A stretch of DNA of 64,000 bases from an uncultured Actinomycetes bacterium (GCA_963709345.1 CAVPVX010000011.1:276886-340885), one strand, 5' to 3'; counted from the stretch's first letter, positions 5,929-27,176 are shown. Numbers and translations are program-made. The notes: generated from the letters alone by a model not told the origin.

Positions 5929-5937
5929 TGCTAGAAT
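5929..5937 (+). promoter_or_regulatory. Extended -10 element (TGcTAGAAT) about 10 nt upstream of the dnaE ATG; possible near-leaderless transcript
   Basis: TGCTAGAAT sits at 5929-5937 and the dnaE ATG at 5948. Confidence 0.3.
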
Positions 5938-5947
5938 CCGGGCATCC

Positions 5948-8900
5948 ATGGCCGCCGACTTCGTCCATCTCCACGTGCACAGCGAGTACTCGCTGCTCGA
6001 CGGCGCCTGCCGTGTGAAGAGCCTCGTCCACAGGGCCAAGGAGCTGGGGATGCCGGCCGTCGCGCTCACCGACCACGGCACGCTGGGCGGCGTCGTCAAG
6101 TTCTACAACGCCGCCCGGGAAGAAGGCATCAAGCCGATCATCGGCCTCGAGCTCTACGTCGCGACCGACCGGCGCTCCCGCGCCGGCGTCAAGGAGAAGA
6201 ACGCCCACCTCACGCTGCTCGCCCGTGACGAGACCGGGTACCGCAACCTCGTCAAGCTCTCCACTCACGCGTACCTCGAGGGCTACTACTACAAGCCGCG
6301 CGCCGACTGGGAGTTGCTCGAGCAGTACCACGACGGTCTGATCGCGCTCACCGGTTGTATGAGCGGCAAGGCGTCGCAGTTGCTCCGCGACGGCAACGAC
6401 GAGGCCGCGCTGGCCGAGGTGCGGCGACTGGCCGACCTCCTCGGCCCTGAGAACGTTTACGTCGAGCTGCAGGACGCCGGCCTGCCCGAGCAGCGCGAAC
6501 TGCTGCCCAAGCTGGCGCAGCTCGCCGAGCAGGCCGGTCTGCGCACGGTCGCGACCAACGACGTGCACTACCTCCGTCACGAGGACGCTCACGCGCACGA
6601 CGCCCTGCTCTGCATCCAGACGCAGAGCAACCTCTCCGATGAGGTGCGCATGCGCTACGGCAGCGACGAGTTCTACCTCAAGTCGCCGGAGGAGATGGAA
6701 GAGCGTTTCAAGGACTACCCGGGCGCGTGCTCCGCGACGGTGGAGATCGCCGAGCGCTGTGACTTGAGCCTCGACTTCGGCGACTACAAGCTGCCGACGT
6801 ACCCGGTGCCCGAGGGCACTACCGAGGCGGCGCACCTGCACGCGCTGTGCGAGCACGGGCTCGTGAAGCGCTACGGCGCCGAGCCCTCGGCCGAGGCGCG
6901 CGAGCGCCTCGACTTCGAGCTCGGCGTCATCGGCGAGATGGGCTTCGACGCGTACTTCCTCATCGTCTGGGACTACGTCAAGTACGCCAAGGACAACGGC
7001 ATCGCCGTCGGACCCGGCCGTGGGTCGGCCGCCGGGTCCATCGTCAGCTATGCGCTCGGCATCACCGACATCGACCCCCTGAAGTACGACCTGCTCTTCG
7101 AGCGCTTTCTCAACCCGGGGCGCAAGAGCATGCCCGACATCGACATGGACTTCAGCGTGGAGCGTCGCGAGGAAGTGATCGCGTACGTGGCCGAGAAGTA
7201 CGGTCGCGACCGGGTCGCCCAGATCATCACGTTCGGCACCATGGCGGCGCGCGCGGCCGTTCGCGACGCCGCCCGGGTCATGGGTCTGCCGTACGCCGTC
7301 GGCGACAAGATCGCCAAGATGATCCCCGAGCAGGCGCCGCCGGCGACCTTCGCGCAAGCGATGCATTCCGGCAGCGAGCTCAAGCAGGCCTGCGACGCCG
7401 ACGAGCAGGTCAGGGAGGTCGTCGACCTCGCGATGAGCCTCGAGGGCCTCATCCGCAACGAATCAATCCACGCCGCCGCGGTGGTGATCAGCGACAAGCC
7501 GCTCACCGAGTATCTGCCGCTGCAGCAGAAGGGCGAGGCCGAGCTCGTCACGCAGTTCGACATGAACGACGTCTCCAGGCTCGGCCTGCTCAAGATGGAC
7601 TTCCTCGGGCTGCGAAACCTCGACGTCATCGAGGCTGCGCTCGCGATCATCGAGAAGACACGCGGCGTCTGCATCGAGATAGACCAACTGCCGCTGGACG
7701 ACGCGAAGACGTACACGATGCTGCAGCGCGGCGACTCCATCGGCGTGTTCCAGTTCGAGAGCCCCGGCATGAAGGAGGCGCTCCGCGACGTGGGCCCCAC
7801 GCAGTTCGAGGACCTCATCGCCATCGTCGCCCTCTACCGGCCGGGGCCGATGCAGTACATCCCGACGTATGCGCGCAACAAGAAGAACCCGGCCTCGGTC
7901 GTCTACGACCACGAGGCTCTGCGCCCCATCCTGGAGCCGACCCACGGCGTGACCATCTACCAGGAGCAGTACATGGCCATCGCCCGGCGCGTCGGCGGCT
8001 TCACGCCGGCTCAGGCCGACGACCTGCGCAAGGCCATCAGCAAGAAGAACCACCAGCTGATGGCCACCCTCAAGGAGCCGCTGCTGGAAGGGCTGGAGAG
8101 GAGCGGCGTGCCGCCGGCCGTCGCCACCAGGCTCTGGTCGAGCTTCGAGGCCACCGGCGACTACTCGTTCAACAAGAGCCACGCCGCCTGCTACGCGATG
8201 ATCAGCTACCGCACCGCCTGGCTGAAGGCGAACTATCCGGTCGAGTACATGGCCGCGCTCATCAGCAGCGTCATGAACACCAAGGACAAGGTGCCGTTCT
8301 ACGTCAACCAGTGCCACGAGATGGGCCTCGATGTCCTGCCGCCGGACGTCAACGAGAGCGATGTCGGCTTCACGGTCGTCGAGGACAAGATCCGCTTCGG
8401 CCTCAACGCCGTCAAGGGCGTCGGTGTGGGAGCGATCGAGGCGATCATCTCCGCCCGCGCCGGCGGGCCGTTCACATCCGTCTTCGACTTCTGCGGCCGC
8501 GTCGACTCGCAGCTCGCCAACAAGCGCACGCTGGAGGCGCTGATCAAGAGCGGCGCCTTCGACAGCACCGGCGATCCGCGCCGGGGCATGCTCGAGGCGC
8601 TGCCGCTGGCGATGTCGGACGGCGAGCGCCGCCGCAAGGACGCAGCGCGCGGGCAGGGTGGGCTCTTCGATCTCGTGCCGCCCGACGACGGCGGCCACCC
8701 CGCGCCGACGGTGCCGCGGGGCGAGTGGAATCAGGCGACGCTGCTCAAGGCCGAGAAGGAGGCCCTCGGCCTGTACGTCTCGGCCCACCCGCTGCAGGGT
8801 CTGCGCGATCAGTTGCGCGACGAGATCGAAGTCCCCGTCGGCGCTCTCGACGACAGCGGCGACGGCGCCGTCCTCTGGACCGGCGGCATCGTCGCGAGCG

Positions 8901-9358
8901 CCCAGAAGCGCGTCAGCAAGAACGGCGGCGTGTGGCTCTCGTTCCGTCTTGAAGACGTTGACGGCGGCATCGAGTGCCGTGCCTGGCCCAAAGTGTACGA
9001 GCAGTACCGCGACGAACTGGTCGAAGACGGGATCATCAAGGTCAAGGGCAGGATCGAGCGCCGCAACGAGGGTGAAAGCATGCTCGCCGTGATCGAGGTC
9101 GTGCCCTTCAACGGCGTCAGCGAATACCATCCTCTCACGGTGGTCATCGACGCCGGCTGCGTGCCGGCGGACGTGATCGACGATCTCCACCGCGTACTCT
9201 CGGACTTTCCCGGCCAGGTGCCGGTGGTGCTGCAGATGGTCCGTGGCGACGAGCGCGCCAGGCTGCGGGTCGGCGATGGTCTGCGCGTGGACCCGGTCGC
9301 CGGTCTGTACGCCGAGCTCAAGGCGCTGCTCGGCGAGAGCTGTATCGGGGTCGGCTGA
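5948..9358 (+). CDS. dnaE: DNA polymerase III alpha subunit
   Basis: The 1137-aa ORF starts MAADFVHLHVHSEYSLLDGACRV, a PHP domain. Fingers/palm and OB regions are typical of DnaE. Confidence 0.95.
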   Translation: MAADFVHLHVHSEYSLLDGACRVKSLVHRAKELGMPAVALTDHGTLGGVVKFYNAAREEGIKPIIGLELYVATDRRSRAGVKEKNAHLTLLARDETGYRNLVKLSTHAYLEGYYYKPRADWELLEQYHDGLIALTGCMSGKASQLLRDGNDEAALAEVRRLADLLGPENVYVELQDAGLPEQRELLPKLAQLAEQAGLRTVATNDVHYLRHEDAHAHDALLCIQTQSNLSDEVRMRYGSDEFYLKSPEEMEERFKDYPGACSATVEIAERCDLSLDFGDYKLPTYPVPEGTTEAAHLHALCEHGLVKRYGAEPSAEARERLDFELGVIGEMGFDAYFLIVWDYVKYAKDNGIAVGPGRGSAAGSIVSYALGITDIDPLKYDLLFERFLNPGRKSMPDIDMDFSVERREEVIAYVAEKYGRDRVAQIITFGTMAARAAVRDAARVMGLPYAVGDKIAKMIPEQAPPATFAQAMHSGSELKQACDADEQVREVVDLAMSLEGLIRNESIHAAAVVISDKPLTEYLPLQQKGEAELVTQFDMNDVSRLGLLKMDFLGLRNLDVIEAALAIIEKTRGVCIEIDQLPLDDAKTYTMLQRGDSIGVFQFESPGMKEALRDVGPTQFEDLIAIVALYRPGPMQYIPTYARNKKNPASVVYDHEALRPILEPTHGVTIYQEQYMAIARRVGGFTPAQADDLRKAISKKNHQLMATLKEPLLEGLERSGVPPAVATRLWSSFEATGDYSFNKSHAACYAMISYRTAWLKANYPVEYMAALISSVMNTKDKVPFYVNQCHEMGLDVLPPDVNESDVGFTVVEDKIRFGLNAVKGVGVGAIEAIISARAGGPFTSVFDFCGRVDSQLANKRTLEALIKSGAFDSTGDPRRGMLEALPLAMSDGERRRKDAARGQGGLFDLVPPDDGGHPAPTVPRGEWNQATLLKAEKEALGLYVSAHPLQGLRDQLRDEIEVPVGALDDSGDGAVLWTGGIVASAQKRVSKNGGVWLSFRLEDVDGGIECRAWPKVYEQYRDELVEDGIIKVKGRIERRNEGESMLAVIEVVPFNGVSEYHPLTVVIDAGCVPADVIDDLHRVLSDFPGQVPVVLQMVRGDERARLRVGDGLRVDPVAGLYAELKALLGESCIGVG

Positions 9359-9388
9359 GGCCGACCGTCACGACGGGGGAGAGGGCCC

Positions 9389-10588
9389 ATGATCCCTGAA
9401 GGCATGCGCGACGTGCTGCCGCCCGAGATGGGTCGCCTGCGCGCCGTCGAGACGGCGCTGTGCGGCCGCTTCGAGGCGTACGGGTACGGTGAGGTTCGCA
9501 CGCCCTGGCTCGAGTTCGCGAAGTCCTTCGCCGTCGTGGACGACGACACGCTGGCGGCGGGGTACCGGCTGCACGGCGAGCAGGGGCACGAGCTCATGGT
9601 GCGCACCGACATGACGGCGCCGGTCGCGCGTCTTGCGGCGGAGCGCTGTGACGACGAGCCGCTGCCGCTGCGCTTCTTCTACGTCGCGCCCTGCATCCGC
9701 CCTTGGGCGCCGCAGCGCGGGCAGGACGGCGAGTTCATGCAGGCGGGCGCCGAGCTCCTCGGTCTCGACTCGGCGGCCGCCGACGCCGAGTGCGTGACGC
9801 TGCTCTGCGACGCGCTCTCGTCGTTGGGTCTGCGCGAGTTCAAGATCACCCTCGGCAGCGTCGCCTTCCAGCGAGCGCTCATCGAGTCTCTCGGCCTCGA
9901 CCCGGCCGACCGCGAGGATCTCATCGAGGCGCTCGCCGACCGCGACTATCCGCTGGTCGAGAGCATCGCCGCCAACGCCGGGCTCGGGCACGACGCGCTC
10001 GGAGCCTTGTGGCGGACGCTCGAGCTCAGCGGCGTCGACGACAGCCTGGCGCAGGCGCGCAAGCTGGCGCGGAGCGACACGGCCGACGCGGCCATCGCGC
10101 GGCTCGTCGCGGTGCGCGACCTCGTCGGCGAGGCGGGGTTCGGCGCCGAGCTGGCCTTCGACTTCGGGCTCATGCACGACCTCACGTACTACTCCGGCCT
10201 CATCTTCGAGGCGTACGCTCCTCGTGTGGGGCTGCCGGTCGCGACCGGTGGCCGCTACGACCATCTCGTCCAGCGCTTCGGCTGGGACGTCCCCGGCGTG
10301 GGCTTCGCGATCGCCGTGGACCGGCTCGTCGACGCGCTGGACGAAGCCGGGCTGGCGCCGGTGGCGCCGCCGCCGGCGCTCGCCTTCGTCGGGGGTCTCG
10401 AGGAGCCGGCGCGGGCCGCCGAGCTTCGTCGCGCCGGTGTCGGTGTCCGCGCCCTGCCGGAGGGCGCGGCCGATCCGGCGCCGCCGCGGCTACGGCGGCG
10501 CGGCGGCAGCTACGAGCTCGAGCTGGCCGACGGGCGGACCGTCGGCGGGAGCTGGCGCGACGTTCGGCGCGCCTTGGGGTCGCAGTGA
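9389..10588 (+). CDS. hisZ: ATP phosphoribosyltransferase regulatory subunit HisZ (HisRS paralogue)
   Basis: 399 aa, MIPEGMRDVLPPEMGRLR...; class-II aaRS-like core. A GGGGGAGAGGG ribosome-binding site precedes the start. It is directly followed by a short-form hisG. Confidence 0.85.
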   Translation: MIPEGMRDVLPPEMGRLRAVETALCGRFEAYGYGEVRTPWLEFAKSFAVVDDDTLAAGYRLHGEQGHELMVRTDMTAPVARLAAERCDDEPLPLRFFYVAPCIRPWAPQRGQDGEFMQAGAELLGLDSAAADAECVTLLCDALSSLGLREFKITLGSVAFQRALIESLGLDPADREDLIEALADRDYPLVESIAANAGLGHDALGALWRTLELSGVDDSLAQARKLARSDTADAAIARLVAVRDLVGEAGFGAELAFDFGLMHDLTYYSGLIFEAYAPRVGLPVATGGRYDHLVQRFGWDVPGVGFAIAVDRLVDALDEAGLAPVAPPPALAFVGGLEEPARAAELRRAGVGVRALPEGAADPAPPRLRRRGGSYELELADGRTVGGSWRDVRRALGSQ

Positions 10589-11208
10589 GGATCGGCGTCG
10601 CCTGTGGCCCGGCGCCCCTGCCGGCCGAGCTTCTCGATCTGCTCGGGGCCGCCGGGCTGCCTGTAGCCCCACTGCGTGGCACGTTGCCGCCCGCGTTGCT
10701 CACGGCGGTCGACACGACGTGGCTCCTCGCGTCCGGCGCCGACGTGCTGCGCGCTTGCGACCGGGCGGCCGTCGACCTCGGCGTCGTGGGCAAGCTCGAA
10801 CTGCTCGAGTCGCGGCACGAGGTCAGCGAGCTTCTCGACCTCGGGTGCTGCCGCGACGCCTTGGTGTACGCGGCCCTCTTCGGCGCTGAGCCGGGCCGCG
10901 CGCTCCGCATCGCCACGAGTCACCCGGTAAGCGCACGCGGGTACTTCGCCGCAGCCGGCCGCCAGGTGGCGATAGTCGTGATGGACGAACCGGCGCTCGC
11001 GCTGGGGCTGGGTCTGGCCGACGGGGTCGTCGCGCTGCAGAGCCATCTCGCCGCTCCCGTGCCCGGGGCAGACGGCGCGCTCGAGATCCGCGACCAGGTC
11101 GCGGCATGCAGCGCGCGGCTCGTGGCCGGGCGCGCCGGTCGCGCCCTTCTCGGCGCACGCCTCGGCGACCTGCTCGAACGGCTGCGCGACGTGATGGAGG
11201 GCGCATGA
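10585..11208 (+). CDS. hisG: ATP phosphoribosyltransferase, short form
   Basis: GTG at 10585 overlaps the hisZ stop (GTGA). The product is about 207 aa with ...ELLDLGCCRDALVYAAL...RIATSHPVSARGYFAAAGRQVAIVVMD.... It shares a frame with the tool ORF 9703..11208. Confidence 0.8.
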   Translation: MRIGVACGPAPLPAELLDLLGAAGLPVAPLRGTLPPALLTAVDTTWLLASGADVLRACDRAAVDLGVVGKLELLESRHEVSELLDLGCCRDALVYAALFGAEPGRALRIATSHPVSARGYFAAAGRQVAIVVMDEPALALGLGLADGVVALQSHLAAPVPGADGALEIRDQVAACSARLVAGRAGRALLGARLGDLLERLRDVMEGA

Positions 11209-12464
11209 GGCGACTGAACTGGAACGACGACGTCGGGGAACTGGTGGCCGCGCTGCGCGCCCTGGCTCCGCCGCCCGACCAGGTGCGCGAGGCGGTCGAG
11301 GCGATCGTTGCCGACGTGCGCGCGCTCGGCGACGACGCGGTACGGGCGCACACCGCGCGCCTGGATCGCGTCGAGCTCCCCGCGGCGTACGGCGTCTCGC
11401 CGGGGGAGCTCACCGCGCGGCTCGACGCTCTCACCCCCGAGCTGCGCGCGGCGCTCGAGCTGGCGGCCGCCAACGTGCGCGCCTATCACGAGCGCGAGGC
11501 CGTGGTCTCCTGGCGCGAGACGCTGCCGCAGGGCCAGGTCGTCGGCCAGGAGATCGTGCCGCTCGCCGTCGCCGGGCTGTACGTGCCCGGTGGTCTCGCC
11601 GACTACCCCTCCTCCGTGCTCATGACGGCGATCCCCGCGCAGGTCGCCGGTGTGGAGCGCGTCGTCGTCTGCTCGCCGCCGCGCCCGGGCGGCGGCGCGG
11701 CCGCCGGCGTCGCCGCCGCGTGCGCGCTGCTCGGGATCGAGCATCTCTTCCCGATCGGCGGCGCGCAGGCCGTCGCCGCCATGGCGCTGGGCACGAGCGT
11801 CGTCCCGCGCTGCGACGTCATCGTCGGTCCCGGCAACGCGTACGTCACCGAAGCCAAGCGCCGGCTGGTCGGCGAGGTCGGCATCGACAGCCTCGCCGGC
11901 CCGAGCGAGGTCCTCATCATCGCCGACGAGAGCGGTGTGCCGGCCTGGCTGGCGGCCGATCTGCTCGCCCAGGCCGAGCACGGCTCGGGGGCTATGGCGT
12001 GCCTCGTCGACGTCGGCGGCACGCTCGCCGGCCCCGTTGCCGCCGAGTGCGAGCGTCTCTCGGGCGAACTCGGCATCGCCCTCGACAATGTCGTCATCGT
12101 CGCCTGTCCGGATCGCGCCGCCGCGCTCGCGTTCGGCAACGCCTTCGCGCCCGAGCACCTCGAGCTGCACTGCGCGGATGCGGCCGCTCTCGTCCCCGGC
12201 GTGCGCAACGCCGGCGCCGTCTTCGTGGGGCCGCATGCGGCGACGGCCTTCGCCGACTACGCCGCCGGCAGCAACCACGTGCTGCCCACCGGCGGCTCCG
12301 CCCGCTTCGCCCAGGGGCTCTCAACCGATGCTTTCCGCAAACGCATGGCTGTGGTAGAACTCGACGGTCCCGCCGCAGCCGCCCTCGCTCCGGCGGTGGC
12401 GGCGATCGCCGACGAAGAGGGCCTGCGCGCCCACGCGCGCTCGGCCCGACTCCACGCCCAGTGA
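11205..12464 (+). CDS. hisD: Histidinol dehydrogenase
   Basis: ATG at 11205 overlaps the hisG stop (ATGA). 419 aa; ...GGAQAVAAMALGT...SLAGPSEVLIIADE.... Confidence 0.9.
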   Translation: MRRLNWNDDVGELVAALRALAPPPDQVREAVEAIVADVRALGDDAVRAHTARLDRVELPAAYGVSPGELTARLDALTPELRAALELAAANVRAYHEREAVVSWRETLPQGQVVGQEIVPLAVAGLYVPGGLADYPSSVLMTAIPAQVAGVERVVVCSPPRPGGGAAAGVAAACALLGIEHLFPIGGAQAVAAMALGTSVVPRCDVIVGPGNAYVTEAKRRLVGEVGIDSLAGPSEVLIIADESGVPAWLAADLLAQAEHGSGAMACLVDVGGTLAGPVAAECERLSGELGIALDNVVIVACPDRAAALAFGNAFAPEHLELHCADAAALVPGVRNAGAVFVGPHAATAFADYAAGSNHVLPTGGSARFAQGLSTDAFRKRMAVVELDGPAAAALAPAVAAIADEEGLRAHARSARLHAQ

Positions 12465-12474
12465 GGAGCCGCAC

Positions 12475-13065
12475 ATGACCGCGCGTCGCGCAACGGTACA
12501 GCGCACCACCAGCGAGACCGACATCGCCCTGACCCTCGTGGTCGATGGATCCGGGGCGGCTGAGGCGAGCACCGGCATCGGCTTCCTCGACCATATGCTC
12601 GAGCTCTTCGCTCATCACGGCCGCTTCGACCTCAGCGTCAAGGCGAGCGGCGACCTCGACGTCGACGGCCACCACACCGTCGAAGACGTCGGTCTGGCGC
12701 TCGGAGAGGCGCTTCGCGAGGCGCTCGGCGACAAGCGCGGCATCCGTCGCTACGGGTCGTTCCTGCTGCCGATGGACGAGGCGCTCGCTCTGGTCGCGCT
12801 CGATCTCTCGGGCCGGCCGTTCTTCGCGCACGACCTGCAGCTTGCCGGCGTGCGCCTCGGCGCCTTCGACGCAGAGCTCACGGCTCACTTCCTGCGCTCG
12901 CTGGCGACGCAGAGCGGCATGACGCTGCACGTGCGCCTTCTCGCCGGCAGCGACGGCCACCACATCGTCGAGGCCGTCTTCAAGGCATTCGCGCGGGCGC
13001 TCTCCGAGGCGTGCGAGCGGCACGGGCGCGACGACGCGGTGCCGTCGACCAAGGGCACGCTCTGA
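12475..13065 (+). CDS. hisB: Imidazoleglycerol-phosphate dehydratase
   Basis: 196 aa; MTARRATVQRTTSETDIALTL...HHTVEDVGLALG..., the canonical IGPD sequence. A GAGGAG ribosome-binding site precedes the start. Confidence 0.92.
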   Translation: MTARRATVQRTTSETDIALTLVVDGSGAAEASTGIGFLDHMLELFAHHGRFDLSVKASGDLDVDGHHTVEDVGLALGEALREALGDKRGIRRYGSFLLPMDEALALVALDLSGRPFFAHDLQLAGVRLGAFDAELTAHFLRSLATQSGMTLHVRLLAGSDGHHIVEAVFKAFARALSEACERHGRDDAVPSTKGTL

Positions 13066-13070
13066 CGCTC

Positions 13071-13715
13071 GTGTCGCAGCCCGGGCCGCGCATCGCCGTG
13101 GTCGACTACGGCATGGGCAACCTGGCCAGCGTGGCGAAGGCGCTCGAACGCAGCGGCGCCGACGTGCGCGTCACGCAGAGCGTCGCCGCGGTGCGCGACG
13201 CCGCCGGCGTCGTGCTGCCTGGCGTCGGCGCCTTCCGTGACGCGGTCGCGCGTCTGGAGAACGGGGGGCTTGGAACCGCCGTCGTCGAGCGCATCGCCGC
13301 CGGCACGCCGTTCCTCGGCGTCTGCCTCGGGCTGCAGCTTCTCTTCGAGAGCAGCGGCGAGGGAGGCCGTCGTCCCGGCCTCGGCGTGCTCCCGGGCACC
13401 GTCGAGCGTCTGGAGACCGATCTCAAGGTGCCGCACATCGGCTGGAACGATCTCGAGTGGGGACCGGCCGGCGCGGGCATGGCCCGCTGGGTGCCGGCCC
13501 CCGCGACCGTCTACTTCGTGCATTCGTACGCGGCCGTCCCGGCCGATCCCGCGATCGTCGCCGCGACTACCGACTACGGCGGGACGGTCGTCGCGGCGGT
13601 GGCGCGGGACAACGTCTGGGCGGTACAGTTCCACCCGGAGAAGAGCTCGAGCGTCGGGCTGTCGCTGCTGGCCGCCTTCGTCGCCAACGTCCACCGGGAG
13701 GCGCACTCCTCATGA
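13071..13715 (+). CDS. hisH: Imidazole glycerol phosphate synthase, glutaminase subunit
   Basis: GTG at 13071 gives VSQPGPRIAVVDYGMGNLASV...; a class-I glutamine amidotransferase with an HPE motif near the C-terminus. Confidence 0.88.
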   Translation: MSQPGPRIAVVDYGMGNLASVAKALERSGADVRVTQSVAAVRDAAGVVLPGVGAFRDAVARLENGGLGTAVVERIAAGTPFLGVCLGLQLLFESSGEGGRRPGLGVLPGTVERLETDLKVPHIGWNDLEWGPAGAGMARWVPAPATVYFVHSYAAVPADPAIVAATTDYGGTVVAAVARDNVWAVQFHPEKSSSVGLSLLAAFVANVHREAHSS

Positions 13716-14437
13716 TCGTGTTCCCCGCCGTCGACATCCAGGCCGGCAAGGCTGTGCGGCTGCGACGCGGCGACTTCGACGACGTGACCGTGTTCAGCGA
13801 CGACCCCGTCGATCTGGCCAGGTACTGGCAGGACCAGGGCGCCGAGGCGCTCCACGTGATCGACCTCGACGCCGCCCGCACCGGCGAGCTGCAGAACATC
13901 GCCATCGTCGAGCGCATCGTCAAGGCGCTCGACATCCCCGTCCAGTACGGCGGCGGTGTCCGCGACGTCAAGGCTCTCGCCCTGACGGCGGGCATCGGCG
14001 TGCACTGGGTGATCATGGGTACGGCCGCGGTCACGTCCTTGGATCTGCTCGACGACGCCGTCAAGTGGCTGGGCGAGCGTCTCGTCGTCGGGCTCGATTG
14101 CACCGACGGCATGGTCGCCACACACGGCTGGCAGGAGCGGTCCCAGATGAGCGCCATCCGCTTCTCGAAGACCCTCGTCGAGCACGGCGTCGGGCGCGTC
14201 ATCTACACCGACACCGCCCGCGACGGCATGCTCGGTGGGCCCAACATCCCCGGGCTCAAGGATCTCGCGGAGGTCTCGCCGCTCGAGATCATCCTGGCCG
14301 GCGGCGTCGGCCTGCTCGACGACCTGCGCCGCCTCAAGCGCCTCGACGCGGCCACTGTGGTCGGCGTCATCGTCGGCATGGCGCTCTACGAGAAGTCCTT
14401 CACGCTCGCCGACGCCCAGACCGTCTTCGCCGGCTGA
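13712..14437 (+). CDS. hisA: ProFAR isomerase
   Basis: ATG at 13712 overlaps the hisH stop (ATGA). MIVFPAVDIQAGKAVRL..., a TIM barrel. Confidence 0.9.
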   Translation: MIVFPAVDIQAGKAVRLRRGDFDDVTVFSDDPVDLARYWQDQGAEALHVIDLDAARTGELQNIAIVERIVKALDIPVQYGGGVRDVKALALTAGIGVHWVIMGTAAVTSLDLLDDAVKWLGERLVVGLDCTDGMVATHGWQERSQMSAIRFSKTLVEHGVGRVIYTDTARDGMLGGPNIPGLKDLAEVSPLEIILAGGVGLLDDLRRLKRLDAATVVGVIVGMALYEKSFTLADAQTVFAG

Positions 14438-14449
14438 CGGCGGCCACCG

Positions 14450-15279
<830 letters not shown>

Positions 15280-15283
<4 letters not shown>

Positions 15284-15993
15284 AGGCGACGCGCCGCATC
15301 GACCTCACCGGCGCACACACCCCCGACGAGGGCGAGCTCGCCGATGCCGTCGCCGCCGCGCGTCTCGTGTGCTTTCCGACAGACACGGTGTATGGCATCG
15401 GCGGTCGCCTGACGCCGGCCGTTCGCGAGGCGGTGATCGCGGCGAAGGGGCGTGACGCGGGCAAGCCGCTCCAGGTGGTGTATGCGTCACTGGAGCTGCT
15501 CGAGGGGTCACTCGATCTGGAGCCCCGGGTCCTCGGCGCGGTGCGCCGCCTCCTGCCGGGGCCGTTCACGCTCCTGGTGCCGTACCCGCCGGGGCTGAGC
15601 TTACCGCCGGCGGGCGAGGTCTTGCCGGCGCCGGCTTCGCCGGCTTCGCTCGCCTCTCCGGCGGCACCCACGCGCACGCTGGGCGTGCGCGTGCCCAAGT
15701 GGCCGCCCGCCGCGCGGGCGCTCGCGCGCCTGCCCTTCGCCCTGCTCGCCTCGAGCGCCAATCCGAGCGGGGCCGCGGCGCCGCGCTCGGTCGCGGTGGT
15801 CGACCCGGGCATCCTCGCCGCCTGCGACCTCCTTCTCGACGCCGGACCGGTGAGCGGAATCGCGTCTACGGTGGTCGATCTCAGCCACTACGCCCTTGAC
15901 GGCCGTTGGCGCATCGTGCGCACGGGGGCCGTCGACGAAGAGGGTGTCGCCGGGCTTCTCGGCGGCGCCGGGGAGGAGCCGGAGTCATCATGA
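15280..15993 (+). CDS. tsaC: L-threonylcarbamoyladenylate synthase, YrdC-only type
   Basis: GTG at 15280 overlaps the hisF stop (GTGA). It carries the motif [14 protein letters not shown]. 237 aa with no Sua5 C-terminal domain. Confidence 0.8.
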
Positions 15994-16883
15994 GGACGCT
16001 GCCGTTCTACCAGGTCGACGTGTTCACCGACCGCCCGTTCGCCGGCAACCCGCTGGCCGTCTTTCCCGAGGCCCAAGGCCTCACTGCCGTGCAGATGCAG
16101 GCCATCGCCAGCGAGATGAACCTCTCCGAGACCACCTTCGTCCTGCCGCCGGAGGGCGACGGCGACGCGCGGGTGCGGATCTTCACGCCTGCCGTCGAGT
16201 TGCCGTTCGCCGGGCACCCCAGTGTGGGTACGGCATGCGAGCTCGTGCGCCTGCGGCTCGTCGACGTGTACCAGCCGGTGACGACCGTGGTGCTCGAGCT
16301 CGACGTGGGCCCCACCGTCGTCGAGGTGGCGGTGCGTGGCGGCGTTCCCGTCGCCGGCACGGTCCACCAGCGCGCACCCGTCTTCCACGCTCCGTCGCCG
16401 CGCGGCTCCGCCGCCGCCGCGCTCGGCCTCGACCTCGACGACCTGCACCCGGAGTTCGACCCCGTGCCGGTCGACACCGGCCTCTGCTACACGATCGTGC
16501 CGCTGGTCTCGCAGCGCGCGCTGGCGCGCGTCTCCATCAACCTCGAGCTGGCCGCCGACTTCGAGCGGCGCTACGCGGAGCTGTATCCCTGCGCGTTCAC
16601 GGGGCAGGCCGACCCGTGGATCGAGGCGCGCGGCCTGTTCCCCTTCGTAGGCATCACCGAGGACCCGGCCACCGGCAGCGCCGCGGGACCGCTGGCCGCG
16701 TACATGGCCCGGGCGGGCATGCTGCCGCCGGGCGAGGAGCGCGTCGTTCTGCAGGGACAGCACATCGGCCGGCCCAGCTTCCTCACCGTCTCAGTCTCGG
16801 GTACGCGGGAGCACATCGAGGACGTCCGCGTGGGCGGACGGGTGCACCCCGTGCTGAGGGGCGAGCTCTCGCTGCCGGACTGA
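15990..16883 (+). CDS. PhzF-family isomerase (phenazine biosynthesis-like protein)
   Basis: ATG at 15990 overlaps the tsaC stop (ATGA). [25 protein letters not shown]...ETTFV... is the PhzF/DAP-epimerase-like fold signature. Confidence 0.8.
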   Translation: MRTLPFYQVDVFTDRPFAGNPLAVFPEAQGLTAVQMQAIASEMNLSETTFVLPPEGDGDARVRIFTPAVELPFAGHPSVGTACELVRLRLVDVYQPVTTVVLELDVGPTVVEVAVRGGVPVAGTVHQRAPVFHAPSPRGSAAAALGLDLDDLHPEFDPVPVDTGLCYTIVPLVSQRALARVSINLELAADFERRYAELYPCAFTGQADPWIEARGLFPFVGITEDPATGSAAGPLAAYMARAGMLPPGEERVVLQGQHIGRPSFLTVSVSGTREHIEDVRVGGRVHPVLRGELSLPD

Positions 16884-17000
16884 TACAATCAGCGGCCTGT
16901 ACGAACAGGTCTCGGCGTCTCGCATCGGGCCGCGTCCCCGGGTGGCTTGCGACCCGTCGCGAGCGCACCCGCTCACTCCCCAGACCAGAAGGAGCATGTC

Positions 17001-17447
17001 ATGAAGATCGCCGCCGGCGCCGACCACGGAGGGTTCGCGCTCAAACAGGCTGTGGTGCGTCGCCTCCGCTCGCTGGGCCACGAGGTGATCGACGTGGGCA
17101 CCGACTCTGAGGAGACGTCCGTCGACTACCCTGACTTCGGCCACAAGGTCGCGACGATGGTCGCCTCCGGCGACGTCGACCGCGGTCTGCTGGTCTGCGG
17201 CACCGGCCTCGGCATGTGCATGTCGGCCAACCGCCACCCCGGCGTGCGTGCCGCGGACTGCTTCACGCCGTATCTCGCAGAGATGGCGCGCCGCCACAAC
17301 GACGCCAACGTGCTCTGCATGGGCGGTCGAATCCTCAGCGAGGACGAGGGCTGGGCCATCACCGAGGTGTGGTTGAACACGCCCTTCGAGGGAGGGCGCC
17401 ACGAGCACCGGGTGGCCGGCATCGAGCGGGGAGGCGGGTGCGCGTGA
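17001..17447 (+). CDS. rpiB: Ribose-5-phosphate isomerase B
   Basis: An AAGGAG ribosome-binding site at 16989-16994 precedes ATG 17001. MKIAAGADHGGFALKQAV...LVCGTGLGM.... Confidence 0.9.
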   Translation: MKIAAGADHGGFALKQAVVRRLRSLGHEVIDVGTDSEETSVDYPDFGHKVATMVASGDVDRGLLVCGTGLGMCMSANRHPGVRAADCFTPYLAEMARRHNDANVLCMGGRILSEDEGWAITEVWLNTPFEGGRHEHRVAGIERGGGCA

Positions 17448-18712
17448 GTCCCGTCGGTCGCGAGTGGCGCCGCGAGCCGCTCTACCACCTCGATCCCGAG
17501 CTCAACGAGCTCCTGCGGAGCGAGCTCATCCGCCAGCAGGAGACCCTCGAGCTGATCGCCAGCGAGAACTTCGCCAGCCGCGCCGTGCTCGAGGCCACGG
17601 GCTCGGTACTCACCAACAAGTACGCGGAGGGCACGCCGGGGGCGCGATACTACGGCGGGTGTGACGTCGTCGATCAGGTCGAGCGGCTCGCCATCGATCG
17701 CTGCAAGGAGGTGTTCGGCGCCGAGCACGTGAACGTGCAGCCCCACTCGGGCTCGTCGGCCAACCTGGCGGCGCTCTTCGCCTTGCTGGAGCAGGGCGAC
17801 ACGATGATGGCCATGGCGCTCGCCCACGGCGGCCACCTCACGCACGGCATGAGCATCAACTACTCCGGCCGGACCTACGACGTGGTGCCGTATCACGTGC
17901 GCTCCGACACCGAGCTCATCGACATGGACGAGGTGCGCGACCTCGCGCTGGCTCACCGCCCCAGGCTCATCATCTGCGGCTACAGCGCCTACCCGCGCAT
18001 CGTCGACTTCGCCGCTTTCCGCGAGATCGCCGACGAGTGCGGCGCCATGCTCCTCGCCGACATCGCCCACATCGCCGGGCTGATCGCCGCGGGGGTGCAC
18101 CCCAATCCGGTCCCGTACTGCGACGTGGTGACCAGCACCACGCACAAGACGCTGACGGGCCCGCGGGCCGGCCTCATCATGTGCCGCAAGGAATATGCGG
18201 AGGCTATCGATCGCGCCGTCTTCCCCGGCATGCAGGGCGGGCCGCTGATGCACGTGATCGCCGCCAAGGCCGTCTGCCTGCGCATCGCCCAGAGCGACGA
18301 GTTCCACCGCCTGCAGCGGCAGATCGTGAAGAACTGCGCCGTGCTCGCCGAGACGCTGGCCGAGGGCGGTCTGCGGCTCGTCTCCGGCGGCACCGACGTG
18401 CACCTGGCGCTGGTCGATCTGCGCAGCACGGGGATGAGCGGTCTCGAGTGTCAGGACCTCCTCGAGACGGTCAACATCACGGCCAACCGCAACGTCGTGC
18501 CCTTCGAAGACGCGTCGTTCAACGTCGCCAGCGGGCTGCGCGTCGGCTCGCCGGCGGTGAGCACCCGGGGCTTCATGGAGCCCGAGATGCGCCAGACCGG
18601 CGAGCTCATGCTCCGCGCCGTCTCCGCTCGCAAGAACGGCGCCGCTCTCGCGGAGATCCGCCACGAGGTCCTCGATCTGCTGGACCGCTTCCCGCTCTAC
18701 GAGTTCCTGTGA
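17444..18712 (+). CDS. glyA: Serine hydroxymethyltransferase
   Basis: GTG at 17444 overlaps the rpiB stop (GTGA). ...[25 protein letters not shown]... and the THKTL PLP-lysine motif are present. Confidence 0.92.
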
Positions 18713-19206
18713 GCGGTCCTCCCGACAACGCCGCCGCGGCGCCGCAGGCGCGGCCGACCTGGGACGAGTACTTCCTGCAGCTCGCCAGGCAGGCCGCGAC
18801 CCGCTCGACCTGCCTGCGTCGCCGGGTGGGCGCCGTGCTGGTGCGCGACAGGCGCATCCTCGCGACCGGCTACAACGGCGCCCCGCGCGGCGTCTCCCAC
18901 TGTCTGGACGTCGGGTGTCTGCGTGACGAGCTCGGCATCCCCTCGGGGGAGCGTCACGAGCTCTGCCGCGCCATCCACGCCGAGCAGAACGCCGTCATCC
19001 AGGCGGCCATCCACGGCGTGGCCATCGAGGGTGCGACTCTGTACTGCACGCACCACCCGTGCATCCTCTGCGCCAAGATCCTCATCAACTGCGGCGTGCG
19101 CGAGATCCACTATCTCGAGGGCTACCCCGATGAGCTCTCCCGAGAGATGCTCAAGGAAGCCGAGGTCGTGCTCCACAAGGAGGAACTGCCATCGGCGGCC
19201 CACTGA
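18709..19206 (+). CDS. Deoxycytidylate (dCMP) deaminase, ComEB-like
   Basis: GTG at 18709 overlaps the glyA stop (GTGA). It carries the Zn-binding motifs HAEQNAV and [11 protein letters not shown]. Confidence 0.8.
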
Positions 19207-19256
19207 GCCTCTCGAGCCCGCTGCGCACGGCCATCCTCGGCTTTCTCATCGCCGCC

Positions 19257-20321
19257 TTGATCGTCTACGTGCTCACACCGCTGATGGGGCGTCTGGCGCA
19301 CCGCACCGGCGCCGTGGACACGCCCAGCGACGACCGGCGCATGCACGTGCTCGCGACGCCCCTGCTGGGCGGCCTCGGCATGTACCTCGGGTGGATGATC
19401 CCGGTCATGCTGCTGGTCGAGGTCGACCGCGCCGTGTGGGGGATCATAGGCGGTGCGACGATCGTCGTCGCCGTGGGCCTGTTCGACGATCTCTACGAGC
19501 TGGAGCCGATCGTCAAGTTCATCGGCCAGCTGCTCGCCATCGGCGTGGCCATCTACTTCGACACGAGCGTGACGCGCCTCGGGGTGCCCTTCACCGACGT
19601 CATGTGGCACCTGCCCGTCCTGTTGTCGATCTTCGTCACCGTGTTCTGGATGGCGATGATCATCAACATGGTGAACTTCATCGACGGCCTCGACGGGCTG
19701 GCCGCCGGCGTGTGCGGCATCTCCGCGCTCACGTTCTCCGTCATCTCTCTGCTCACCGGCTTCCCAGCCATGGGGGTGCTCTCCGCCGTGCTGGCCGGCG
19801 CGACCTTCGCCTTCCTGCGCTTCAACTTCCACCCGGCCAGCATCTTCATGGGCGATGCCGGCTCGATGCTGCTGGGGTTCGTGCTCGCCTGCATCAGCGT
19901 CCAGAGTGTGATGAAGGGCACTGCGGCCGTCGCGCTGGTGCTGCCGCTGCTCGTGCTCGGCGTCCCCTTCGTGGATCTCTTCCTCATCGTCTGGCGGCGC
20001 TGGCGCCGCGGGGTGCCGTTCTACTCGCCCGGCCAAGACCACGTGCACCACGATCTCGTGCTCGTGCACGGCTTCTCGCAGCGCAAGAGCGTGCTCCTGC
20101 TGTACGGGTGGTGCAGCTGCCTCAGCTGCCTCGCCATCGCCGCTCAGCAGCGCTACACGCCGGCGATCGTGTTCTTCGGCGTCGCGGCGGTCGTCTCGAC
20201 CACCTACATGGCCCGTCTGCTCAGCCGCTTCCGGTCGCGCCGCGAGGGCCTTCCCGACCCGCTTGCTCCAGGTGTCGGCCGCAACCCGTCCAAGGGTGGG
20301 AATGATGACCAGGCCGCCTAG
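19257..20321 (+). CDS. wecA: GT4 family UDP-GlcNAc:undecaprenyl-phosphate GlcNAc-1-phosphate transferase (WecA/Rfe-like); N-terminus probably extends to CTG 19203
   Basis: MraY/WecA signatures are present: ...DDLYEL...NMVNFIDGLDGLAAG...NFHPASIFMGDAGS.... The first in-frame canonical start is TTG 19257. The in-frame region from 19203 ([21 protein letters not shown]) encodes the expected first TM helix. Confidence 0.8.
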   Translation: MIVYVLTPLMGRLAHRTGAVDTPSDDRRMHVLATPLLGGLGMYLGWMIPVMLLVEVDRAVWGIIGGATIVVAVGLFDDLYELEPIVKFIGQLLAIGVAIYFDTSVTRLGVPFTDVMWHLPVLLSIFVTVFWMAMIINMVNFIDGLDGLAAGVCGISALTFSVISLLTGFPAMGVLSAVLAGATFAFLRFNFHPASIFMGDAGSMLLGFVLACISVQSVMKGTAAVALVLPLLVLGVPFVDLFLIVWRRWRRGVPFYSPGQDHVHHDLVLVHGFSQRKSVLLLYGWCSCLSCLAIAAQQRYTPAIVFFGVAAVVSTTYMARLLSRFRSRREGLPDPLAPGVGRNPSKGGNDDQAA

Positions 20322-20388: not shown

Positions 20389-20417
20389 TTGCAGGCCTCC
20401 GGCTCGGCAGGTATAGT
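20389..20417 (+). promoter_or_regulatory. Candidate sigma-A-type promoter for the atp operon (-35 TTGCAG, 17-nt spacer, -10 TATAGT)
   Basis: TTGCAG at 20389-20394 and TATAGT at 20412-20417 are separated by 17 nt. The -10 box abuts the annotated atpZ ATG, so the true atpZ start may be GTG 20487. Confidence 0.35.
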
Positions 20418-20639
20418 ATGACGCCGGGAGCATCCGGGGACGGAAAAAAAGACGGCGGGCACCGCTCGTCTGCGTCCGCGGAATCGGTGGCGTTTCTACT
20501 TCTTGCAGGCGTCGCAGTCGGGCTGGGTGTGGGTGCCGGGCTTGACTGGCTGTTCGGTAAGTTCCCGCTGTTCGCCGTAATCGGTGTGTTCGCCGGGTTC
20601 GTTCTGGCGCTGTACGCGATCTACGTAGAGACGAAGTAA
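20418..20639 (+). CDS. AtpZ/AtpI-family small membrane protein (putative F-ATPase-associated)
   Basis: The core ...LLLAGVAVGLGVGAGLDWLFGKFPLFAVIGVFAGFVLALYAIY... matches PF09527. The start is uncertain: ATG 20418 or GTG 20487. Confidence 0.6.
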   Translation: MTPGASGDGKKDGGHRSSASAESVAFLLLAGVAVGLGVGAGLDWLFGKFPLFAVIGVFAGFVLALYAIYVETK

Positions 20640-20670
20640 CCGCTTCGGGAGGACCGGACTTATCCGCAAG

Positions 20671-21036
20671 TTGGTCATAGCACCGCTTCTTTTTGGAGCC
20701 ACTGCAGTGGTCTGCGCCGTGGTCGCCGCCGTCGTTGGGCAGCCGGTGTGGGCCGCCGCCGCGGGCGCCAGCCTCGCGCTCGTCTACTGGGCGCTCGATG
20801 CGCTCACCTGGTGGCGCGCTCGCGATCGCGACGACCTCGCGCTCGGACTCGCGATCGGCGGCATGTTCACCCGGCTTCTTGTGGTGCTCACGGCTCTCGT
20901 CATCATCGGCATTCTCGACCGCCCGTCGTTCCCCACCGCGGTGGTCTCATTCCTCGTCGCGTTCACTCTGTACATCCTTGTCCGTCCCCTCATGTACCTC
21001 ACCGCGTCCACTCCGGCGGGCCAGGCGAGGCTGTAG
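20671..21036 (+). CDS. atpI: ATP synthase protein I
   Basis: A 121-aa hydrophobic protein immediately upstream of atpB. The TTG start is uncertain. Confidence 0.5.
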   Translation: MVIAPLLFGATAVVCAVVAAVVGQPVWAAAAGASLALVYWALDALTWWRARDRDDLALGLAIGGMFTRLLVVLTALVIIGILDRPSFPTAVVSFLVAFTLYILVRPLMYLTASTPAGQARL

Positions 21037-21890
21037 TGAAGCATCCCTGGCGCTGGATCATCGGCCTGCTGGCCGTCGGTTTACTCGTCGCCCTGGCGAT
21101 CATCCCCGGCGGTGCCAGGCGGGAGTTCCCGGTCGCGGAGGAGTTCGATCTCACCCACCCCCTCGTCTCGCTGCCCACGGTCGGGCCCTTCGATCTGTCG
21201 GTGAGCAAGGCCGTCGTCTATCTGTGGATCGCCACCGCGGTCATCGTCGTCCTCGCGATCATCATCGCTCGCAGCCTCAAGGTGCATCCAGGCCGGTTCC
21301 AGTTCACTATGGAGACGCTCTACGCTCTGGCGCGCGACGGTATCGTAGGCTCGGTCATGAAGAGCGGCAAAGCGACCTGGTTCCCCTACGTCGGCGCTGT
21401 GTTCGTCTTCGTGCTCGTGAACAACGTGATCGGGCTGCTCCCGCTTCCGTTCGGCGAGCATCATCAACCGTCCTACTACGCCGCCACCGCCAACCTCAAC
21501 GTCACGGTGACCCTGGCGCTGTTCACGTTCGTGTTCACGCACTACGCAGGGCTGCGGAAGAACGGCCTTCGGTACTTCGCCAACTGGGCGCCGCCCTCGG
21601 CCCCTCCGGTGCTCAAGCAGGTGATCTGGTTCATCCATGTCATCAGCGAGATCTTCCGTCTCATCTCGCTCTCTGTACGTCTGTTCGCCAACATGCTCGC
21701 CGGGCACGCCATCCTCGCCGTGTTCTTCGCCATGGTGCTCATCTTCCAGAGCTACCTGGCGGCCGTCGTGCTGCAGGGCGCTTCGGTGCTCATCTACATG
21801 TTCGAGATCTTCGTCGCCTTCATCCAGGCGTTCATCTTTGCCATTCTCTCCGCCGTTTACATCGGCGGCGCTCTCGACCAGGACCACTGA
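21036..21890 (+). CDS. atpB: ATP synthase Fo subunit a
   Basis: GTG at 21036 overlaps the atpI stop. It carries the key-Arg motif ...SLSVRLFANMLAGH.... Confidence 0.9.
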   Translation: MKHPWRWIIGLLAVGLLVALAIIPGGARREFPVAEEFDLTHPLVSLPTVGPFDLSVSKAVVYLWIATAVIVVLAIIIARSLKVHPGRFQFTMETLYALARDGIVGSVMKSGKATWFPYVGAVFVFVLVNNVIGLLPLPFGEHHQPSYYAATANLNVTVTLALFTFVFTHYAGLRKNGLRYFANWAPPSAPPVLKQVIWFIHVISEIFRLISLSVRLFANMLAGHAILAVFFAMVLIFQSYLAAVVLQGASVLIYMFEIFVAFIQAFIFAILSAVYIGGALDQDH

Positions 21891-21919
21891 CCATCGTCAC
21901 GTGCAGACAACCGCTGTAG

Positions 21920-22174
<255 letters not shown>

Positions 22175-22211
22175 GAGCAACGAGCGCTGAAGTGAAACAG
22201 GGAGGTCGCTC

Positions 22212-22721
22212 ATGCTAGACGTGTTCCCGGGCCTCATGATCTGGACGCTGATCACGTTCGGCATCGCCGTGTTCATCCTCTGGAAGTACGCCTTCGGGCC
22301 GCTCCAGAAGATCATCGATGAGCGGCGCGCGGGCATCCAGGAAAGCATGGACGTGGCGGAAGAGACGCGCGTTGAGGCGCTGCGCCTGCTCGAGGAGTAC
22401 AAGGCCACGCTCGCCAGGGTACGCGGCGAGTCTGATGAGATCCTGGAGCGCTCGCGCACGACCGCCGAGCACACCAAGACGGAGATCATGACGGAGGCCA
22501 AGGTCCAATCCGAGCGCGTGCTCGAGAAGGCTCACGAGCAGATCGAGCGCGACACGCGCGCCGCCCTGCGCCAGATCAAGGGTCAGATCGCCGAGCTCAC
22601 CGCACTGGCCACCGAGAAGGTCGCGGCGAGTAGCCTGAGCGAAGCCGACCAGCGGCGCCTCATCGACGAGGCGCTCGCAGAGCTCGACGTCGACAAGCTC
22701 GGCGCTGAGGGCTCAGGGTGA
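22212..22721 (+). CDS. atpF: ATP synthase Fo subunit b
   Basis: N-terminal TM helix followed by a long charged helix; 169 aa; AGGGAGG ribosome-binding site. Confidence 0.88.
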   Translation: MLDVFPGLMIWTLITFGIAVFILWKYAFGPLQKIIDERRAGIQESMDVAEETRVEALRLLEEYKATLARVRGESDEILERSRTTAEHTKTEIMTEAKVQSERVLEKAHEQIERDTRAALRQIKGQIAELTALATEKVAASSLSEADQRRLIDEALAELDVDKLGAEGSG

Positions 22722-23271
22722 GCGAGGAGCAGGTCGCCAGGGTCTACGCCCAGGCCCTCTTCGACGCGGCGCGCGATGCGGACGCGGTGGACCTCGTGCG
22801 CCGCGAGCTGGGCGACTTCGTCGCCGCCCTCGCGGCCTCGGCGTCGCTCCACGACGTGCTCGCCGACCCGCAGGTCGAGACGGCTGCCAAGCAGCGCGTG
22901 CTGGTCGAGATCACGCGCGGCGGGCAGCCGCTGCTCACCAACGTGCTCCGGCTCTTGCTCGACCGCGGGCGCTTCGCCGTTGTGCCTAGGCTGCCGGACT
23001 TCTTCGATGAGCTCGCGGACGCGGGCGAAGGCGTCGTCGAGGTCGAGGTGGTCGCCGCCGTCGAGCTCGCGCCGGCGACGGAGGAGAAGATCGTCGCCCG
23101 CGTCCACGAGGCCACCGGCCGCCGGGTGGAGCTCGCCCGGCGTGTCGACCCCGCGATCATCGGCGGGCTCATCCTGCGCATCGGCGACGTGATCGTCGAC
23201 GGCAGCGTCAAGGGACGTATCCGCCAGCTGCGCCGCCGGCTGGCTACCGCAGAAGTGAGAGGTGATGTCTA

Positions 23272-23272
<1 letters not shown>
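22718..23272 (+). CDS. atpH: ATP synthase F1 subunit delta
   Basis: GTG at 22718 overlaps the atpF stop (GTGA). 184 aa, OSCP-like. Confidence 0.85.
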
Positions 23273-24819
<1,547 letters not shown>

Positions 24820-24820
24820 C

Positions 24821-27167
<2,347 letters not shown>

Positions 27168-27176
27168 GAGGCAGCC

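Follow-up and report, generated by a model that had tools for sequence, protein, structure and literature searches.

A compact same-strand block of housekeeping genes with conserved stop/start overlaps and candidate AUC start codons in an uncultured actinobacterium

A run of 13 genes, hisZ-hisG-hisD-hisB-hisH-hisA-hisF-tsaC-phzF-rpiB-glyA-dcd-wecA, lies between dnaE and the atp genes in a 64,000-nucleotide (nt) stretch of DNA from an uncultured Actinomycetes bacterium (GCA_963709345.1 CAVPVX010000011.1:276886-340885), hereafter called the window. These genes are rather probably arranged as a compact same-strand housekeeping block of three adjacent transcription units, in which ribosomes would reinitiate at stop/start overlaps and two genes, wecA and a small open reading frame (ORF) in the position of atpI, would begin at weak AUC codons. 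The overlaps, the promoter-like elements and the candidate start codons from which this arrangement is proposed are presented below, followed by the alternatives and the gene map.

Genes were called from a third-position GC frame plot combined with an ORF list, which show the 13 genes as an unbroken run on the plus strand downstream of dnaE, and their identities were assigned with NCBIfam and Pfam profiles. The rest of the window was covered by a rough gene list of our own. For comparison, 36 related loci from genomes and metagenomes were used (denoted by L and a number). The window has a GC content of ~70%, and its nearest public loci belong to genomes of uncultured Thermoleophilia (Actinomycetota). 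HisF, for instance, is 97% identical to its counterpart in L001 and 86-88% identical to those of L002-L004.

Stop/start overlaps and promoter-like elements

The initial annotation of this stretch described the genes as chained by overlaps of 4 nt, and all seven of these overlaps are exactly as claimed. They are GTGA at 10585 (hisZ/hisG), ATGA at 11205 (hisG/hisD), ATGA at 13712 (hisH/hisA), GTGA at 15280 (hisF/tsaC), ATGA at 15990 (tsaC/phzF), GTGA at 17444 (rpiB/glyA) and GTGA at 18709 (glyA/dcd). The distances it gave between the other genes are also correct (30 nt at dnaE/hisZ, 10 at hisD/hisB, 5 at hisB/hisH, 12 at hisA/hisF and 117 at phzF/rpiB). Its statement that all remaining gaps measure 12 nt or less fails at dcd/wecA, where the first ATG, GTG or TTG is the TTG at 19257, 50 nt past the dcd stop. 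The assignment of start codons, on which the overlaps depend, was checked against the family profiles. Residue 1 of the profiles falls within 0-16 residues of the overlapped starts, and a protein begun at the next canonical codon would lack part of the conserved region. According to these alignments, the overlapped codon is the best candidate start at each of the seven junctions; it is at wecA, with no canonical start near the dcd stop, that the assignment does not hold.

Nearly every relative that holds both genes of a pair also has the overlap, and only such relatives were counted. Retention is complete at hisZ/hisG (12/12), hisG/hisD (6/6) and hisF/tsaC (3/3), with a few losses at hisH/hisA (8/10), tsaC/phzF (6/7), rpiB/glyA (17/19) and glyA/dcd (21/22). 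At these junctions the start codon swaps among ATG, GTG and TTG from one relative to another and its position is unchanged. The junctions without overlap drift, from 5 to 58 nt at hisB/hisH and from 10 to 60 nt at hisA/hisF. Judged from this comparison, the overlaps are real and maintained, because they are kept in relatives while other junctions drift. They are also frequent, as a 4-nt overlap is found at 7 of the 12 junctions of the block and at ~3 of 24 junctions between same-strand genes elsewhere in the window (Fisher p = 0.007, with the rough gene list outside the block). As an argument against chance, the conservation is stronger than this rate. An apparent 4-nt overlap between dnaE and hisZ in L002 was rejected as a frame error of that assembly; the junction there resembles that of the window.

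Good Shine-Dalgarno (SD) sequences precede hisD, hisA, phzF and glyA, as estimated from the duplex with the anti-SD. For tsaC and dcd an SD was looked for and not found (duplexes of -2.8 and -2.5 kcal/mol, respectively), which fits translation of these two genes through termination-reinitiation. A ribosome that ends one gene would restart on the next at an NUGA overlap or across a gap of up to 12 nt, and this restart would matter most for tsaC and dcd, both of which lack an SD. Translational coupling is thereby predicted within the units.

Overlaps of this kind are well known. Among 720 prokaryotic genomes ~15% of gene pairs in most groups overlap on the same strand (by any length), the 4-nt type being the commonest (PMC6728339), and coupling at such overlaps has been demonstrated experimentally in Escherichia coli and Haloferax volcanii (Huber et al. 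2019, PMC6728339). In Mycobacterium tuberculosis, 19% of the ORFs overlap the upstream ORF, with 515 NUGA overlaps that have been linked to coupling, and an SD is lacking in 58% of the ORFs that lie downstream of a 4-nt or 1-nt overlap (bioRxiv 10.1101/2022.06.01.494293). The junctions described here share with these NUGA/AUGA termination-reinitiation overlaps (PMC6728339; bioRxiv 10.1101/2022.06.01.494293) the 4-nt type, the same strand, the conservation and the presence or absence of an SD. No difference in kind is seen; the run is denser than the average of the window, and coupling is here a prediction. The overlap packing is ordinary for a high-GC actinobacterium, since NUGA overlaps are common in this group.

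Three promoter-like elements are located in the intergenic regions. The extended -10 motif TGCTAGAAT (5929-5937, plus strand) lies 11 nt before the dnaE ATG at 5948 and is conserved in L002, L003 and L101. A second extended -10 motif, TGATACAAT (16881-16889, plus strand), lies upstream of rpiB, and its TGA is the stop codon of phzF. The third element, TTGCAG-17 nt-TATAGT (20389-20417, plus strand), is of the sigma-70/SigA type and lies upstream of atpZ. In detail, TGnTAnAAT matches twice in the 64-kb window versus 0.2 expected, and the two sites are those before dnaE and rpiB. On both strands of 330 kb of clade loci it matches 25 times, 21 before rpiB and 4 before dnaE, with no match elsewhere. 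A TA(C/G)AAT hexamer is found 50-126 nt before the rpiB start in each of the 26 clade loci that extend to this gene (the full TGnTAnAAT in 21), and the motif is kept while the spacer around it diverges.

Before atpZ, nearly every clade locus that extends this far has the pattern TTGnnn-17/18-TAnnnT, within divergent spacer sequences; the -10 hexamer of the pattern is degenerate in L092 and L102. This looser pattern matches 9 times in the window versus 1.2 expected. Of the 16 TAnnnT hexamers on the plus strand between 5700 and 21100, those accompanied by TGn or by a -35 TTG are exactly the three intergenic ones.

These elements would drive three units. The first would comprise dnaE-hisZGDBHAF-tsaC-phzF, expressed from the -10 element just upstream of dnaE; the second rpiB-glyA-dcd-wecA, expressed from TGATACAAT overlapping the phzF stop; and the third atpZ through atpC, expressed from TTGCAG-17-TATAGT. 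Firing of the three motifs is a prediction from their sequence and conservation. An atp operon with a promoter of its own is known from Corynebacterium glutamicum (PMC3917460). At the first unit, the lack of an SD before dnaE (-2.8 kcal/mol) agrees with a very short leader, and the dnaE mRNA is probably leaderless or nearly so.

The small hairpin reported in the phzF/rpiB spacer, CCTGT-ACGA-ACAGG, is present at 16896-16909 on the plus strand, one base off its first placement. With -10 kcal/mol (z = -1.5) the fold of this hairpin is not remarkable. Only the closest relative, L001, shares the hairpin, and it would lie at the 5′ end of any transcript started from TGATACAAT. Another hairpin, GGTCGGC-TGAG-GCCGACC (9349-9366, plus strand), carries the dnaE stop codon in its loop and has no U tract. 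The fold of this region is unexceptional (z = -0.5); in L005, L083 and L092 the corresponding position has a stem of another sequence (CAGGCGGGCGC...GCGCCCGCCTG), and this points to a conserved structure that could act as a processing or stability element or as a leaky terminator. Folding of the three spacers and of the CCTGT hairpin gave unremarkable z-scores throughout, from -0.5 to -1.7. An Rfam scan of 5000-30000 (E <= 1) returned no riboswitch or leader in the spacers; its sole match was weak, by chance, and within dnaE.

In two relatives the phzF/rpiB spacer carries repeats. L002 has, between the phzF stop and the rpiB motif (12436-12647 of that locus), 3.7 tandem copies, 99% identical, of a 57-nt GC-hairpin unit, and the promoter-like motif forms the end of the final copy. 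A similar repeat is found in L004 (~12408-12600).

Start codons of wecA and of the ORF in the atpI position

The gene at the end of the block encodes a WecA-like GT4 phosphotransferase (WecA/MraY family) and is placed at 19191-20321 on the plus strand, with a proposed ATC start, according to its profile match and the evolution of its coding frame. The frame is open from 19134, and there is no ATG, GTG or TTG between 19134 and 19257. Position 9 of TIGR02380 aligns at residue 23 of the ATC-started protein, and therefore position 1 of the profile falls upstream of the TTG at 19257. Over the 30 codons that follow 19191 (19194-19283), third positions vary in 29 of 30 codons and second positions in 7 of 30 among 17 sequences. 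The ratio of synonymous to nonsynonymous changes in this segment is 1285:806 in the wecA frame, versus 308:1800 and 24:1931 in the other frames. By this measure the coding region clearly reaches upstream of every canonical start. The public call for this gene in the same genome (P0001, 350 aa) begins at the GTG at 19269 and loses part of the first membrane helix; for WecA of close relatives, the public calls give lengths between 347 and 386 aa.

Within 19177-19206 of the window, AAGGAGG is followed after 7 nt by the ATC at 19191, which gives an overlap of 16 nt with dcd. All 34 clade sequences at this junction (L001-L005, L081-L109 and L161 at dcd/wecA) have AAGGAG(G) 7-8 nt before an in-frame AUH codon (AUA, AUC or AUU). 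At the start position, 14 sequences, among them that of the window, have ATC and 18 have ATA; ATG is found only in L098. In the sequences of the ATA type this codon shares bases with the dcd stop (ATAG or ATAA). A single A-to-C change would account both for the switch from ATA to ATC and for the loss of the dcd stop (TAG to TCG), and the extension of dcd looks like such a stop-loss event. The CTG at 19203, which forms a CTGA overlap with the new dcd stop, is present in most members of the ATC subclade and is replaced by GTG in L084 and by TTG in L161. It remains an alternative candidate for the wecA start in the subclade of the window, and with either ATC or CTG the predicted start in the window is non-canonical.

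The small ORF in the position of atpI (20662-21036, plus strand), for which no Pfam match was found, has a similar beginning. Its proposed start, the ATC at 20662, lies 9 nt past GGGAGGA (20647-20664; duplex of -10.3 kcal/mol). The codon at this position, 6-9 nt after AGGAGG, is ATC in the window and in many relatives, ATT in L003 and ATA in L089; in other relatives it is ATG (L083, L097 and L102), GTG (L084, L101 and L103) or TTG (L108). Such an interchange of codons at one position is what would be expected of a start codon. AUH starts as a general habit were rejected, because the other atp genes start normally: atpD, atpE, atpF and atpC have ATG or GTG.

Both wecA and the atpI-position ORF therefore stand apart from their neighbors in the codon found at their conserved 5′ ends, and they probably start at AUC codons behind strong SDs. 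Weak AUC starts would keep these two membrane proteins scarce. There is about an even chance that this holds across this Thermoleophilia clade, i.e., that the two genes begin at conserved AUC, AUA or AUU codons, often in an AUAG or AUAA overlap, which hold both proteins at very low levels. Within highly expressed operons, initiation would then take place by termination-reinitiation or would be directed by the SD to a non-canonical codon.

The codons AUA, AUC, AUU and CUG support initiation in E. coli at 1-2% of the level of AUG, and the only confirmed natural cases are infC and pcnB (bioRxiv 10.1101/063800). The present genes resemble infC and pcnB, which have AUU starts (bioRxiv 10.1101/063800), in the near-cognate AUH codon at a conserved 5′ end of the coding sequence, in its location after an SD and in the low translation expected. 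On the contrary, the genes concerned are different, the AUA overlaps the upstream stop (AUAG/AUAA) in many relatives, and the starts described here are predictions from the sequence.

Alternative explanations

The initial annotation proposed one transcript from hisZ (or dnaE) through wecA into atpZ-atpC, coupled throughout, and this is considered improbable. Its basis stands in part: every gene lies on one strand with tiny gaps, the overlaps are conserved and no terminator-like site (a hairpin plus a T run) was found on the plus strand from 9358 to 20321, in a scan that does not see Rho-dependent terminators or those lacking a U tract. In M. tuberculosis, moreover, tight coupling has been reported to suppress Rho-dependent termination (bioRxiv 10.1101/2022.06.01.494293). 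However, the conserved promoter-like elements are located at just the two long spacers, of 117 and 96 nt, which coupling cannot bridge; rpiB and atpZ have SD-like sequences of their own; and in relatives spacers of 200-350 nt with hairpin repeats precede the rpiB motif. Nor does the block feed directly into the atp operon, as had been stated, since a 96-nt spacer that holds a promoter-like element separates the end of wecA (20321) from the start of atpZ (20418). Internal transcription starts or terminators at most junctions had been named as the observation that would speak against a single transcript; promoter-like elements were found at two junctions, and terminator-like sites at none. A single transcript is thus probably the wrong description at these two junctions. 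Long read-through transcripts may coexist with shorter ones, because no terminator-like site separates the proposed units.

The overlaps themselves could be passive consequences of the compaction of a high-GC genome whose stop codons are rich in TGA, with no role in expression. NUGA overlaps are very common (515 in M. tuberculosis; bioRxiv 10.1101/2022.06.01.494293), the loss of a stop codon followed by extension can create overlaps (PMC3887535), and two cases in the block have the appearance of stop-loss events, namely the extension of dcd and the C-terminal tail of hisF. The latter has ~19 residues and reaches the tsaC start, so that the hisF/tsaC overlap looks like an extension of hisF up to the next stop codon. 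This explanation is nevertheless unlikely in view of the same junctions being overlapped across relatives while those without overlap drift between 5 and 60 nt, of start codons that change in identity and keep their position, of the two overlapped genes without an SD of their own, and of an overlap rate above that of the rest of the window (p = 0.007). A further possibility concerns wecA only, i.e., that a -1 ribosomal frameshift close to the dcd stop, where many relatives read C CCA UAG, yields WecA fused to Dcd in place of a separate initiation. The gene is in the -1 frame of dcd, it has no canonical start and a strong SD-like element lies just upstream of the site. An SD-like element is also found upstream of some known frameshift sites (prfB and dnaX). 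On the other hand, the sequence G CCA UCG found in the window and its subclade is not slippery, the start region holds ATG in L098 and GTG or TTG in L084 and L161, and the spacing of 7-8 nt between the SD and the AUH codon is ideal for initiation; a frameshift is thus very improbable. Two Dcd-WecA fusions in the database (P0022 and P0103) were rejected as garbled, frameshifted assemblies.

Some observations weigh against the proposed arrangement in three units. Besides the lack of terminator-like sites between them, no promoter belonging to the his genes themselves was found, and their expression from the dnaE promoter only would be unusual. A generic promoter scan gave no promoter-like site in the region; it is blind to the motifs described above because it demands a close match to the -35. 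In addition, a transcript that starts ~7 nt past TATAGT would miss the atpZ start codon. AtpZ may be made only from read-through RNA, or it may start elsewhere. The 5′ region of atpZ looks coding, as the differences of L002-L004 in this part consist of third-position changes and a single in-frame indel of 3 nt (a reading by eye). TATAGT abuts the start codon of atpZ (20412-20420 for both), which is ATG in the window and ATG, GTG, CTG or TTG in relatives.

Gene content, neighborhood and significance

All genes of this region are on the plus strand. The gene dnaE (5948-9358) encodes the DNA polymerase III alpha subunit and matches NCBIfam NF005298/NF004226 with ~1364 bits, aligned from residue 58-59 of the ORF. 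The ORF list hints at a longer dnaE from 5780, a start that the family profiles do not support. The block begins 30 nt past dnaE with hisZ (9389-10588; TIGR00443, 286 bits, with profile position 1 at residue 7), which has the SD GGGGGAGAGGG. It is followed by a short form of hisG (10585-11208), identified by Pfam HisG (46 bits) and scoring 43 bits with TIGR00070, whose cutoff is 75.75. The short-form HisG is highly divergent, with 45-57% identity to close relatives versus 70-90% for the neighboring His proteins. Next are hisD (11205-12464; TIGR00069, 426 bits), hisB (12475-13065, after a 10-nt gap; NF002111, 265 bits, residues 2-196 against profile 2-194), hisH (13071-13715, after 5 nt; TIGR01855, 214 bits), hisA (13712-14437; TIGR00007, 239 bits) and hisF (14450-15283, after 12 nt; TIGR00735, 374 bits, over residues 3-258 of 277).

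Beyond the his genes, tsaC (15280-15993) belongs to the Sua5/YrdC/TsaC family (Pfam PF01300, 101 bits; TIGR00057 is under its cutoff) and phzF (15990-16883) encodes a PhzF-family isomerase (TIGR00654, 208 bits). The second proposed unit starts with rpiB (17001-17447; NF004051, 185 bits, residues 1-142 against profile 2-143), preceded by the SD AAGGAG, and continues with glyA (17444-18712; NF000586, 587 bits) and dcd (18709-19206), which encodes a ComEB-like dCMP deaminase (Pfam PF00383, 91 bits). Past wecA, atpZ (20418-20639) was identified by PF09527 with 33 bits, over the cutoff. The genes atpB-E-F-H-A-G-D-C occupy 21036-27608, as determined from the ORFs and their junctions, with a match of 190 bits to ATP-synt_A. 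A GTGA overlap joins atpF to atpH, and overlaps of 1 nt are found at atpI/atpB and atpH/atpA.

The description of the 13 genes as functionally unrelated was overstated, as seven of them (hisZ, G, D, B, H, A and F) belong to one pathway, histidine biosynthesis. With their pathway-like order and overlapping or near-abutting genes, they resemble a bacterial his operon with HisZ and short-form HisG. The differences are that hisC, hisI and hisE are not among the genes of the block, that the operon adjoins dnaE at 30 nt without a recognizable promoter of its own, that a 4-nt overlap joins it to tsaC, and that some relatives retain just hisZ-hisG-hisA. In five loci (L085, L098, L101, L161 and L162) the interval between dnaE and tsaC holds only hisZ-hisG-(hisD or a 63-aa ORF)-hisA, without hisB, hisH and hisF. 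Other relatives lack hisD, phzF or glyA in the block.

The mixture of functions was further examined in distant loci. L151, a contig with 40% GC, carries prfA, prmC, a transporter gene, Sua5, MntP, a low-molecular-weight protein tyrosine phosphatase (LMW-PTP), rpiB, glyA, upp, a dCMP deaminase gene and atpBEFHA. About 15 other distant metagenome contigs keep tsaC..rpiB-(glyA)-dcd-wecA, and five of them run on into atp. The order tsaC...rpiB-glyA-dcd...atp is thus a neighborhood far older than this lineage, because it recurs in a contig with 40% GC. In Bacillus-like Firmicutes the order is prfA-prmC-tsaC(ywlC)-...-rpiB(ywlF)-glyA-upp-atp, and in mycobacteria tsaC-wecA(rfe)-atp. The gene order of L151 is presumably the same as in the ywlC...ywlF-glyA-upp-atp region of Bacillus subtilis and the Rv1301-rfe-atp region of mycobacteria. 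In the literature on the Bacillus ywl-glyA-upp-atp and mycobacterial Rv1301-Rv1303 arrangements, no paper stating this match was found.

The likeness to the Bacillus-like and mycobacterial neighborhood lies in the order tsaC-rpiB-glyA-(upp/dcd)-(wecA)-atp, as tested on L151 and seen in the other distant contigs. Compared with the Bacillus-like neighborhood, dnaE and the his genes take the place of prfA-prmC, phzF is an insertion, neither upp nor the phosphatase is present, and the genes are fused by overlaps. A feature particular to this clade is that dnaE and the his operon lie immediately upstream of tsaC, and loci of Solirubrobacterales have hisZGDBHAF without tsaC downstream. The phzF gene is missing or a 3′ remnant in some relatives; L095, L101 and L106 retain only a 3′ remnant adjoining the rpiB motif. 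The mixed functions of the block are not new wiring, but a his operon placed beside a neighborhood that a low-GC contig also has.

The arrangement in three units changes little in what is known of bacterial gene organization, being another case of operon compaction by stop/start overlap, beside a neighborhood that is already widespread. The promoter-like motifs provide, for an uncultured lineage, a SigA-type consensus that can be put to use. The probable AUC and AUA starts of wecA and of the atpI-position ORF most deserve to be followed up. If these are true, standard gene callers would systematically mis-start both genes, and the starts would add natural, conserved cases to non-AUG initiation in bacteria.

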